Program-made: the position numbers and the translations under genes
Notes under the pieces: generated by a model
Seen by the model: only the letters and a program-made list of their open reading frames with translations
What the model was told of the DNA's origin: nothing
Database searches by the model: none
In this document: piece after piece, positions 51,689 to 53,326 of the stretch
Position numbering within the stretch: position 1 is the stretch's first letter
Layout: every line of letters starts with the position of its first letter
NCBI GenBank assembly: GCA_017502435.1
Contig: JAFVUZ010000028.1
Span: 1 to 61,101, forward strand
Direction of reading: 5' to 3'
Length of the DNA: 61,101 bases
Source: Lentisphaeria bacterium
GTDB taxonomy: Bacteria > Verrucomicrobiota > Lentisphaeria > Victivallales > Victivallaceae

Positions 51689-51765
51689 GGGGCTGTAACT
51701 CAGTTGGCTAGAGTGTCACGTTCGCAACGTGGATGTCGTGGGTTCGAATCCCATCAGCTCCACCA
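51689..51765 (+). tRNA. tRNA-Ala (anticodon CGC) with encoded CCA
   Basis: Cloverleaf read by eye: acceptor GGGGCTG/CAGCTCC with the G3:U70 alanine identity pair, anticodon loop TTCGCAA, T-loop GGTTCGAATCC, and 3' ACCA. Confidence 0.9.
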
Positions 51766-51789
51766 TTTTTGCCTGCGGCAAAAATGGTG
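51761..51789. repeat. perfect 13-bp hairpin that includes the tRNA 3' end
   Basis: CACCATTTTTGCC (51761-51773), loop TGC, GGCAAAAATGGTG (51777-51789). The left arm contains the last acceptor base, the discriminator and CCA. Confidence 0.8.
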
Positions 51790-51790
51790 A

Positions 51791-51957
51791 ATGAAGCCTG
51801 AAAAGGCTTCGCTTCATGCACCGAAGGTGCGCTTCATGGCACGCAGTGCCGCTTCATACGCCGTCAGGCGTGCTTCATAAAAACGCCTTTTCAGATGAAG
51901 CATTGTTTCGTTTCACTCCACAATATGAAGCATCTTCATTTCATTCCGATATGAAGC
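51791..51957. repeat. heptamer ATGAAGC/GCTTCAT cluster with 20-bp periodic hairpin units
   Basis: ATGAAGC at 51791, 51895, 51925 and 51951. GCTTCAT at 51811, 51831, 51851 and 51872. The reverse-orientation copies are each followed by a different 5-bp-stem palindrome (GCACC-GAA-GGTGC, GGCAC-GCA-GTGCC, ACGCC-GTCA-GGCGT). Confidence 0.85.
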
Positions 51958-52058
51958 ACTCCGCTCACGCTCCGTATGATTTAAAAATGAAAAATGAGAG
52001 TTATGTTTGCAAATATTCCTTGTCTATGCGGCATGATTCAATGGAAAGAAAAAATCTC

Positions 52059-52418
52059 ATGGAAAAAACTTCAAATAAACTCGTTGATCTTTCTGTTGCC
52101 TTTGCAGTTGAAATATTGAATCTTGTAAAATATCTGAAAGAACAGAGAGAAACGATTATATGCAATCAAATCGGCAGAGCCGGAACAAGTATCGGAGCCA
52201 ACATCCACGAAGCGCAATATGCTCACGGGAAAGCTGATTTTGTTTCAAAACTGCAAATTGCCTTGAAAGAAGCCAATGAAACAAGCTACTGGTTGCTGCT
52301 ATTGGGAAAAACAAATATCCTCTCTTCGGCAGAATATGATCGGTTGGAAAATCTCTGCCGGGAAATCAGAATAACTCTGATCGCCTCAATCAACACCACG
52401 AAACAGAATCTTAAATAA
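52059..52418 (+). CDS. four-helix-bundle protein (23S rRNA intervening-sequence protein / Avd-like family)
   Basis: QIGRAGTSIGANIHEAQYAHGKADFVSKLQIALKEANETSYWL matches the family core (RA..SI..NI.E...F...L.IA.GS..E). Likely start is MEKTSNK (52059) or MERKNL (52041). The ORF-track start at 51816 translates the repeat array. Confidence 0.85.
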   Translation: MEKTSNKLVDLSVAFAVEILNLVKYLKEQRETIICNQIGRAGTSIGANIHEAQYAHGKADFVSKLQIALKEANETSYWLLLLGKTNILSSAEYDRLENLCREIRITLIASINTTKQNLK

Positions 52419-52480
52419 CCCATTGCGGCAGATCATTCTCTAATCGTCATTTTTGATTTTAAGTAAAATCACATTCTGCT

Positions 52481-52891
52481 TTAATTTACATCAAGATAAC
52501 GTATTGTCCAGAAATTGATGAATTCTTTCGTTTCGGAATCCAATATTTTATTTTCAGCAAGTTTCATAATTACAAACAACATAAGGCGGATTTGCTGTCT
52601 GGAAAAATTATTTAAAAATACCATTCTCTGCTGTCTGGAATATTCTGAAATATCTTCCGGAAGGGGCAAAAGAGTAAGACAAAACATAGATAAATTTCCA
52701 ATATCTGAACATCTTTCATCTCCATATACTGCAAAATAAAGAAAAATACCGATCATTCGAATTTGAGTTGCATCGTCAGCAGTACACATATCTTCAGCCA
52801 TACCATAGATATCAATCTCTCTTGGCAGTGTTTCAATTTTGAAAGCCTCCAGAATCTCCTGAACTATATCATAATATTTTTTATGCTTCAC
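52481..52891 (-). CDS. hypothetical protein (orphan, 136 aa)
   Basis: Only the open frame supports this call. It has a GTG start and no motif I recognise. It converges on the four-helix-bundle gene. Confidence 0.45.
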   Translation of the reverse strand: MKHKKYYDIVQEILEAFKIETLPREIDIYGMAEDMCTADDATQIRMIGIFLYFAVYGDERCSDIGNLSMFCLTLLPLPEDISEYSRQQRMVFLNNFSRQQIRLMLFVIMKLAENKILDSETKEFINFWTIRYLDVN

Positions 52892-53116
52892 AAACTTTCT
52901 CCAAATAAAATAATTTTATAGTGAATACCCTCAAAAATAATATATCATTTGCATAATAAAATTCAAGTCAAGACTACGAACTTTTATCAGGGAAAGTCCT
53001 CTGCATTACATTTTAACGTTTTTTGATTTCATGAGACTTTTTTCGCAGTTCTGTAACTCTCTACATCCTTCGCTAAAGCGACGGAGGGCTAACGGCAGAG
53101 AATTGGAGAAAAACGA

Positions 53117-53326
53117 ATGTTCTACACCTACATTTTACGCAATATTTCCCATCCTGATCAGCGTTATATCGGCAGTACAGCAGATTTAAAGTCCCGCCTT
53201 GCAAAACACAACGCTGGTGAAGTACCTCATACCTCAAAGTTCAAACCGTGGAAAGTTGAAGCATATTTCGCCTTTGAAACCAAAGAAAAGGCAGCGGCAT
53301 TTGAAGCATACCTTAAAACCGTTTGA
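53117..53326 (+). CDS. GIY-YIG nuclease family protein (short, possibly C-terminally truncated)
   Basis: MFYTYILRNISHPDQRYIGSTADLKSRLAKHNAG carries the GIY-(x)n-YIG and R..H motifs of the small UPF0213-type family. It ends at 69 aa, just after the YLKT motif. Confidence 0.75.
   Translation: MFYTYILRNISHPDQRYIGSTADLKSRLAKHNAGEVPHTSKFKPWKVEAYFAFETKEKAAAFEAYLKTV

Follow-up and report, generated by a model that had tools for sequence, protein, structure and literature searches.

The window analysed here is a stretch of 61,101 nucleotides (contig JAFVUZ010000028.1) from a 2.86-Mb metagenome-assembled genome (MAG; 266 contigs, assembly GCA_017502435.1) of a gut Lentisphaerota. On its plus strand, a tRNA-Ala(CGC) gene (51689-51765; detected by ARAGORN and, with 65.3 bits, by the Rfam tRNA model) directly precedes a 167-bp block (51791-51957) holding eight copies of the heptamer ATGAAGC or its reverse complement GCTTCAT. 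Behind this array, on the same strand, lies a gene for a four-helix-bundle protein (52041-52418; PF05635, TIGR02436), coding for 125 aa from the ATG at 52041 or 119 aa from the ATG at 52059. The array was found to share its architecture with Gut-1, a hairpin motif listed in Rfam, and the locus is almost certainly a copy of a cassette of the Gut-1 class. The copy most likely runs from 51761 to about 52430 and belongs to a kind of small cassette resident in 3′ flanks of stable-RNA genes. Such a cassette would consist of a junction hairpin overlapping the CCA end of the tRNA, a mirror-symmetric two-armed array and the PF05635 gene.

A heptamer search recovered the eight copies at the positions given in the initial annotation of this DNA, on the plus strand at 51791, 51895, 51925 and 51951 and on the minus strand at 51811, 51831, 51851 and 51872, with the reverse copies spaced 20, 20 and 21 bp apart. 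The 3′ end of the tRNA is the insertion point, and the array is introduced by a junction hairpin, H0 (51761-51789, CACCATTTTTGCC-TGC-GGCAAAAATGGTG), whose 5′ arm takes in the last 5 nt of the tRNA. It is followed on the plus strand by a start hairpin (51791-51810), in which ATGAAGC overlaps the local hairpin GAAGCC-TGAAAA-GGCTTC (51793-51810). The left arm (51811-51878) alternates four copies of GCTTCAT with three mini-hairpins, GCACC-GAA-GGTGC (51818-51830), GGCAC-GCA-GTGCC (51838-51850) and ACGCC-GTCA-GGCGT (51858-51871). At the centre or hinge (51879-51894, AAAAAC-GCCTTTTCAG) the heptamer orientation flips. The loop region of the start hairpin, CTGAAAAGGC (51798-51807), is complementary to GCCTTTTCAG at 51885-51894, and both this bracket and the local hairpin that had been put forward as its alternative are present in the sequence.

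The right arm (51895-51979) contains three copies of ATGAAGC and a terminal ATGA, with pyrimidine-rich modules between them that are closed by stems of 2-4 bp (attg...caat, atc...gat, ac...gt). These modules are shuffled, gained or lost between copies of the array, and in some copies one of them is a true hairpin (atttgc-tttc-gcaaat). The 19-codon open reading frame (ORF) noted previously at 51895-51954, whose TGA overlaps the next ATG, does exist but is not conserved. Right-arm heptamers are spaced 23, 26, 28, 30, 48, 51, 56 and 76 nt apart across copies with no common reading frame, and a reading of ATGAAGC as the start of leader peptides was rejected because neither module lengths nor frames are kept. 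The arm is followed by a conserved box, AAAATGAAAAATGAGAGTT, and the leader of the four-helix-bundle gene (51983-52040); the box recurs at array ends elsewhere in the genome.

The heptamer occurs 711 times in the 2.86 Mb of the genome (0.25 per kb, both strands), and 167 bp would be expected to hold 0.04 copies against the eight observed, an excess of about 200-fold. An unbiased scan of the genome for any 7-mer standing on both sides of a perfect hairpin with a 5-bp stem returned 24 units with GCTTCAT/ATGAAGC, and other 7-mers as single hits only. The pattern was present in 80 of 151 genomes of the order, in which its non-complemented reversal was almost absent. All genomes compared are fragmented MAGs, and their contigs often end within arrays. 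The window's own genome holds at least 13 heptamer clusters, and with further copies detected through the junction hairpin there are at least 15 arrays in all.

Six of the 41 tRNA genes are directly followed by an array (Ala-CGC, Val-TAC, two His-GTG, Pro-TGG and Pro-GGG), and a seventh, Ser(GCT), is followed by an array of a sister subtype with the heptamer TCTTCAC/GTGAAGA. Other arrays lie behind leftovers of tRNA 3′ ends, 11-22 nt long, and so form tandem units, as on contigs C184 and C204; on C263, an array stands between a tRNA-Val remnant and a tRNA-Pro remnant. The units share one order: a long hairpin that begins within the CCA end or just behind it, ATGAAGCC-loop-GGCTTC, three to four GCTTCAT copies each with a hairpin, the centre CGCCTTTTCAG, two to four ATGAAGC copies each with a module, and the box AAAATGAAAAATGAGAGTT. 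This box ends arrays on C18, C104, C184 (twice), C250, C255 and C263, the gene behind it being intact, truncated or gone. A hairpin equivalent to H0 stands before every array. At the tRNA-Ala loci of two relatives its inner part has another sequence (TAAAAAATA.../...TATTTTTTA, enclosing a true terminator) and its pairing with CCACCAT is kept; at tRNA-Ser (subtype 2) the equivalent pairs with CGCCA, and at tRNA-His and tRNA-Pro the T-run alone is paired. Recurrence next to other tRNAs and four-helix-bundle genes, proposed earlier as a check on the array, was thus observed at both, in this genome and in relatives. The initial annotation was incomplete in that it mentioned neither the multi-copy nature of the array nor its likeness to Gut-1.

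Arrays gain and lose whole units of 20-21 nt, with two hairpins in G005 and three in G000. One unit (GCTTCAT + ACGCCGTCAGGCGT) has expanded to at least nine tandem copies in a genome of the order (G034:C43, 1-245, and C38, 9-99), and arrays can therefore grow like minisatellites. Most tRNA genes of the window's genome carry a run of 5-9 T right after CCA, often TTTTTTTGCC, and many then an inverted GGCAAAAAAA. The tRNA itself may act as a terminator hairpin, and the T-run sequence common to the tRNA 3′ flanks could serve as a landing site.

On the GCTTCAT strand, each left-arm hairpin has a 5-bp stem whose closing pair is C-G, capped by a loop of the form GNA or GNNA. Among 64 distinct spacers from this genome and related loci, 49 form perfect 5-bp stems, with at least 25 different stem sequences. 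The statement that structure is conserved and sequence is not holds within one array, but across copies the hairpins are drawn from a limited, recurring repertoire. In an alignment of 22 three-hairpin arms, the three hairpins were 98% paired and 13 of the 15 base pairs showed changes on both sides, the loop-closing C-G being nearly invariant; exchange of entire hairpin modules between positions contributes to this covariation. None of 500 shuffles matched the observed pairing, and partners slid by 1-3 columns paired at 28-50%. The start hairpin is also kept in other copies (its helix is 80% paired in the alignment), and the centre motif CGCCTT(T/G)(T/C)CAG recurs at the same place. Whether by covariation or by module exchange, hairpin formation is a preserved property, and the folding and covariation analysis that had been proposed for the stems bears them out. 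Folding of either strand is much stronger than that of shuffled sequences (z -4.6 and -4.1). Single stem mismatches are G-U on the tRNA/gene strand in six distinct hairpins versus three on the other strand, a difference that is not significant and rests on too few cases to name the strand or the molecule. GNRA-type tetraloops, which are stable in RNA, occur on the tRNA/gene strand. The C-GNA-G triloop, as in d(GCGAAGC), forms an exceptionally stable DNA mini-hairpin.

A scan against Rfam matched Gut-1 (RF01706) to the minus strand at 51806-51880 with 32.2 bits (E 1.7e-4), below the gathering score of 50; other copies of the array scored between 27.5 and 32.2 bits. By structure, the array has what characterises Gut-1, namely three consecutive short covarying hairpins with a conserved linker, about 7 nt long, between them. 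The flanks in the Gut-1 seed alignment contain a tRNA or terminator, then three GUGAUAU-linked hairpins and then several inverted AUAUCAC words. Since this larger architecture matches and the score stays below 50, the array lies outside formal Rfam membership yet is of the same kind with another linker. A bona fide Gut-1 in Ruminococcaceae UMGS1668 (locus L287; 76.4 bits, its mirror arm 43.8 bits) is placed between two tRNAs with their terminator and a PF05635 gene.

Gut-1 and the window array thus have in common at least three short covarying hairpins, an invariant 7-nt linker, a mirror arm with the linker inverted, and a position just behind tRNA genes or terminators. They differ in the linker (GUGAAAU/GUGAUAU in Gut-1, GCTTCAT/ATGAAGC here), in the order of the arms relative to the tRNA, which is opposite, and in host, Gut-1 being known from gut Clostridia and human-gut reads and the window array from Lentisphaerota. 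Moreover, the Rfam entry describes the three-hairpin core as a small RNA and gives no function, partner gene or mobility. To judge from sequence and predicted structure, the array clearly appears to be a new heptamer subtype of the Gut-1 motif class.

The Gut-1 motif was described from human-gut sequences and rated a probable non-coding RNA (Weinberg et al. 2010, PMC2864571), a rating that speaks for the main rival of the explanation we favour below, an element acting as RNA. Transcription would then reach the array from the tRNA by read-through, or the array would form the 5′ leader of the mRNA for the four-helix bundle. As RNA, it could serve as a processing or insulating module for tRNA and mRNA, as a stabilising 5′ structure, as an autoregulatory platform, or as a free small RNA as listed by Rfam. 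Neither a sigma-70-like promoter nor an intrinsic terminator was detected between tRNA and gene in the window copy, and the strong covariation, the folding of both strands, the GNRA-type loops and the somewhat commoner G-U mismatches on the tRNA/gene strand all fit transcription of the array. However, the G-U bias, apart from lacking significance, points to the strand opposite the Rfam match, and relatives have a canonical terminator between tRNA and array. The orientation of the arms to tRNA and gene is reversed between lineages of the Planctomycetes-Verrucomicrobia-Chlamydiae (PVC) group (Lentisphaerota, Kiritimatiellota) and Clostridia, the element has mirror symmetry, a gene to regulate is missing from most copies, and the C-GNA-G triloops are classic DNA mini-hairpins. 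We regard a role at the RNA level as possible but rather doubtful, and somewhat favour DNA because of the mirror symmetry, the arm order reversed between lineages and the C-GNA-G loops. The narrower suggestion of a leader controlling the four-helix-bundle gene is right in that the link to the gene is real and general, but it fails to account for the many gene-less arrays and for arms whose orientation to the gene differs between lineages.

The product of 52041-52418 scored 88.7 bits with PF05635 (cut-off 33.8) and 95.6 with TIGR02436 (cut-off 24), and is 50% identical (E 4e-29) to PDB entry 2RLD (BT_0352), which has five chains. Its AlphaFold model (mean predicted local distance difference test score, pLDDT, 87.6) has four helices and 2RLD as best fold match, with a template-modelling (TM) score of 0.83-0.93. 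The crystal entries of the relatives 2RLD and 2GSC contain five or more chains each. A fold match to Avd of a Bordetella phage retroelement was weak (TM about 0.6, E 0.1). Avd, of the diversity-generating retroelements, has a homologous four-helix-bundle fold and is pentameric, nucleic-acid-binding and part of a mobile-information system; unlike the window gene, it is accompanied by a reverse transcriptase and a template/variable repeat pair. A link of the cassette to retroelements was rejected, the sole RVT_1 match of the genome being on contig C161, far from arrays, with no long direct repeat around 52041-52418.

Array and gene are tied together within the genome and beyond it. All four array-linked gene copies of the genome stand behind arrays, intact on C18, C73 and C46 and truncated on C250; a fifth, a 36-aa fragment on C225, is outside this count. 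Almost every gene of this clade in relatives likewise has an array in front of it. The genes on C18, C73 and C250 follow ATGAAGC arrays and that on C46 (7955-8323) follows GTGAAGA arrays. Gene-less arrays on C104, C255 and C263 keep the box and a truncated leader and are decayed cassettes. In a family-wide tree of 60 PF05635 loci, drawn from 33 genomes within the same bacterial family, the hairpin-array genes formed one clade with ATGAAGC and GTGAAGA subclades. Ten further loci, from seven other genomes (Clostridia, Kiritimatiellia and Victivallaceae), were reached through the array pattern, and nine of these PF05635 loci had a heptamer array upstream, with GTGAAAT, GCGATAT, ATGAAAA, GTGAAGC, ATGAAGC, GTGAAGA or tandem TAGTGAA as the repeated word; one of them is the bona fide Gut-1 of L287. 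In the joint tree, the Kiritimatiellia protein with ATGAAGC arrays nests in the Lentisphaerota ATGAAGC clade, and the clostridial Gut-1-type proteins are the sister group. PF05635 hits were present in all seven genomes with at least seven GCTTCAT pairs, and a gene of the hairpin-array clade in none of the 22 genomes with two pairs or fewer. Different heptamer/protein pairs coexist within one genome.

Across the family as a whole, heptamer repeats (at least seven approximate copies within 200 nt upstream) were found at 13 of 63 PF05635 loci versus 8 of 311 control genes. Gut-1 and PF05635 were both already catalogued; sequence comparison indicates that the array belongs with the PF05635 gene. 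Among 120 loci taken from genome contigs, a PF05635 gene lay inside the block in one only. Matches to a three-heptamer pattern in Nostoc and others were 21-nt periodic repeats, and no PF05635 gene was present in the fetched blocks.

Other PF05635 clades have plain tandem heptamers (sometimes 6-, 8- or 14-mers) directly upstream, lacking hairpins and purine-rich on the coding strand, such as (AGTTAGG)x6 and (AGTGGTGAGTTGAG)x8 (L142, L144, L150, L153, L156, L164, L166, L172, L178, L183, L197 and L290). They recall the short tandemly repeated repetitive (STRR) heptamers of cyanobacteria. Both array styles stand side by side in a Kiritimatiellia MAG (L291), where a tmRNA gene is followed by two successive PF05635 genes, the first behind tandem TTCACTA/TAGTGAA and the second behind a GCTTCAT hairpin array. 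GCTTCAT- and GTGAAGC-type arrays were also seen in genomes labelled as Clostridia (L018; L296, MAG RGIG6213; L043, Ruminococcaceae UMGS1668), which also carry a protein close to the Lentisphaerota clade; these are either a case of transfer across phyla in the gut or mis-binned contigs.

The cassette has very probably moved between genomes. From 51766 onwards, the segment comprising junction hairpin, array and gene is 90.3% identical over 694 nt to a copy in the MAG Lentisphaerae SIG95, where it sits behind tRNA-Val with flanks unrelated to the window; the MacA/MacB genes of the two genomes are 70% identical. The BLAST alignment ends at 52457, and similarity visibly fades a few bases past the stop codon. 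The right border of the cassette (about 52424-52457, within 52419-52477 on the plus strand) runs into the leftover 3′ end of another gene: 52408-52477 matches, at 82%, the 3′ end and downstream region of a GIY-YIG gene behind the tmRNA gene. Within the same genus, G003 and G005 carry an array at tRNA-Ala. G001 has no array there, and a GIY-YIG cassette orthologous (82%) to window positions 53077-53321 stands directly behind the tRNA instead. In the window this older occupant is displaced to 53059-53326 (plus strand) and consists of a degenerate tRNA-Ala 3′ remnant (ctctaca, 53059-53065), tccttcgctaaagc (53066-53079) and a shortened GIY-YIG gene (53117-53326; PF01541, 57 bits). Since its ortholog in G001 directly follows tRNA-Ala, about 1.3 kb has been inserted in the window, separating the tRNA from the degenerate copy of its 3′ end. 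A direct repeat of the tRNA 3′ end is clear on C184 (22 nt), on C263 (16 nt of tRNA-Val) and at L294 (22 nt), and in the window only the degenerate ctctaca is left of it. The same 1.3-kb segment contains an orphan ORF of 136 aa (52481-52891, minus strand) with no Pfam or NCBIfam match. Horizontal exchange of the cassette, gene included, with re-insertion at the flanks of stable-RNA genes is the highly probable explanation of this distribution.

The displaced occupant is itself a member of a second small cassette family that uses the same tRNA and tmRNA 3′ flanks. In it, tccttcgctaaagc right after CCA is followed by a terminator hairpin, an inverted copy of tccttcgctaaagc and then a GIY-YIG gene of about 79 aa (PF01541). 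Besides the window (53059-53326), this family was found in the same genome on C160 (4660-5060, behind the tmRNA), C143 and C25, and in G001:C146 (L134). A GIY-YIG nuclease could supply breaks that let flank cassettes move. Another hairpin motif, GUCCY, has been noted near genes of the GIY-YIG kind (Weinberg 2010, PMC2864571).

Insertion exactly at a tRNA 3′ end, with the end restored, older occupants pushed downstream behind 11-22-nt copies of that end and serial insertions producing tandem arrays, is what the cassette shares with tRNA-targeted genomic islands. The heptamers could accordingly be arm-type sites that mark the attL of such islands, with a tyrosine integrase acting in trans; the four-helix-bundle protein would then be cargo, or a factor for architecture or directionality. 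In favour of this, the junction hairpin forms an inverted repeat across the tRNA end, and attP arms, as in lambda-type sites, typically have repeated, oriented sites next to a core. An integrase in cis was rejected, as none of the ten PF00589 genes of the genome adjoins an array. The tRNAs nearest to integrase genes, sharing contigs with them (Arg(TCT), Ser(GGA), Ser(GCT) and Glu(TTC)), have no array either. The units measure merely 0.2-1.3 kb, unlike tRNA-targeted islands, and the covariation of the hairpins would have no role in double-stranded arm sites. Arrays in the Gut-1 seed also lie behind gene terminators. Attachment sites of this type are therefore an improbable explanation in our view, even if the proposal of sites at a tRNA hotspot was correct about the hotspot, with its nested insertions and leftover tRNA 3′ ends.

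The spread of the arrays could also be that of a domesticated or neutral repeat, comparable to repetitive extragenic palindromes (REP) and bacterial interspersed mosaic elements (BIME), which multiplies by slippage, unequal crossing-over and gene conversion among tRNA flanks and carries the gene as a passenger. The build is mosaic and modular, whole units are gained and lost up to the tandem expansion seen in one relative, many copies are gene-less, and the T-run/GCC sequences behind many tRNAs could support recombination. Like REP/BIME with their RAYT (REP-associated tyrosine transposase) genes, the arrays are multi-copy extragenic palindromes with a short conserved flanking word in mosaic clusters; the protein gene is flanked by its own repeats, most repeats are orphans, and several orthogonal pairs per genome are possible. 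The arrangement is nevertheless the reverse of REP: there the hairpin keeps one sequence, whereas the arrays keep the linker and vary the stems. In REP systems the partner is an HUH enzyme, whereas here it is a four-helix bundle without known catalytic residues. We found no RAYT-type partner, and a RAYT/IS200 link was rejected, the sole Y1 transposase of the genome (PF01797, contig C27) being IS200-like, with unrelated hairpins and no GCTTCAT nearby. A passenger gene also fits poorly with array types that track protein clades across phyla, with the enrichment of heptamers upstream of PF05635 genes over controls, and with a cassette that, gene included, is far more alike between two genomes than the rest of their sequence. 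The REP/BIME-like reading, which had been offered for the array, thus captures its multi-copy mosaic extragenic character but is very unlikely as an account of the whole.

The explanation that we favour, and to which we give an even chance, is that of a selfish tRNA-flank cassette in which the array is the cognate platform of the cassette's own four-helix-bundle protein. Where the region becomes single-stranded, in unwound or extruded DNA or in a transcript, the C-GNA-G mini-hairpins would fold, and in the folded arm four or five heptamers at equal spacing would be exposed as single-stranded linkers. A ring-shaped protein encoded by the cassette would read these linkers, and the array would be its cognate cis site, as REP is for the RAYT transposase or parS for ParB. 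The cassettes, placed by some inserting enzyme, would spread between tRNA flanks and genomes and then decay to gene-less arrays. Recognition of four or five heptamers per arm by a ring-shaped four-helix-bundle protein, at the DNA or the RNA level, is on its own a claim that we hold at even odds or slightly less, because array type and protein clade are co-inherited, matched pairs coexist and the relative Avd binds nucleic acid. Attachment sites of integrons (attC) offer a partial parallel as folded single-stranded hairpin sites with structure conserved over sequence and flanked by conserved 7-nt core words. An attC, however, is a single imperfect palindrome of 57-141 nt with inverse core words and is read by IntI, whereas the window has perfect hairpins of 13-14 nt alternating with direct repeats, and no integrase nearby.

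Several observations weigh against a selfish cassette with a cognate platform. Co-inheritance of a gene with its upstream DNA is expected from common descent alone, and most arrays have no gene, which accompanies about 4 of 17 in this genome and 1 of about 25 at the other MAG loci. The proteins are only mildly basic (isoelectric points of 6.8-9.0). No integrase or other recombinase, reverse transcriptase or HUH enzyme linked to arrays was found in the genome. In IMG/VR, 73 hits to the pattern included no hairpin array, and BLAST against plasmids and phages gave weak matches to the coding part of the gene only and no arrays. A clean empty site was not found at the window, where five same-genus genomes are syntenic precisely up to the MacB stop codon and diverge from there, each in its own way, or at C250 (tRNA-Pro), whose flanks are on different contigs in relatives, because synteny around the loci is broken in fragmented MAGs. 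Finally, one locus (L177, G001:C58) has ATGAAGC arrays and a protein at the base of the GTGAAGA clade. The N-terminus of this protein resembles the ATGAAGC type and the rest the GTGAAGA type. It looks like a recombinant or hybrid, and the locus may serve as a natural test of which region of the protein determines heptamer choice.

A wider form of the same idea would make PF05635 pentamers in general sequence-specific readers of heptamer repeats. With their arrays they would constitute a selfish cassette without a canonical recombinase that homes to the 3′ ends of stable RNAs (tRNA, tmRNA and, by extension, 23S rRNA helices) and crosses phyla in the gut, and Gut-1 arrays and plain tandem heptamers would be variants of one cis element. 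This generalisation we consider speculative and rather unlikely as it stands. Its extension to rRNA refers to the 23S rRNA intervening sequences, which likewise have a PF05635 ('S23p') ORF in or next to a stable-RNA gene, with a long hairpin at its boundary, a likeness taken from the family description. Those sequences are located inside 23S rRNA helices and not, as the cassette is, behind tRNA or tmRNA genes, and we know of no heptamer arrays described for them.

In the literature searched we could not find the pairing of Gut-1 with PF05635, the extended two-armed architecture, the nesting in tRNA flanks or the heptamer subtype of Lentisphaerota and Kiritimatiellota, and no paper linked Gut-1 or heptamer repeats to PF05635. 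Listed in Rfam since 2010, Gut-1 has had no assigned host, function or partner, and knowledge of the very large PF05635 family is confined to crystals from structural genomics, the 23S rRNA intervening sequences and the distant relative Avd. The locus and its relatives join these two orphan families, in two further phyla and with other heptamers, and they point to a possible new small mobile element, directed at the flanks of stable-RNA genes and lacking a recognisable recombinase. The cassette also accounts for assembly breaks of gut MAGs at tRNA flanks, and the coexisting matched heptamer/protein pairs could serve as orthogonal nucleic-acid-recognition modules.

A repeated non-coding stretch of about 80-100 nt (atcgaaaatctgtaatccgcagttgtaaagcctgcggcagatggtatatta...) was also observed beside several array remnants and elsewhere. 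It occurs at L297 (250-354) and, within the window's own genome, on C263 (1126-1227), C87 (8602-8680), C106, C255 (67-115), C203 and C224, and is possibly a shared promoter or operator.

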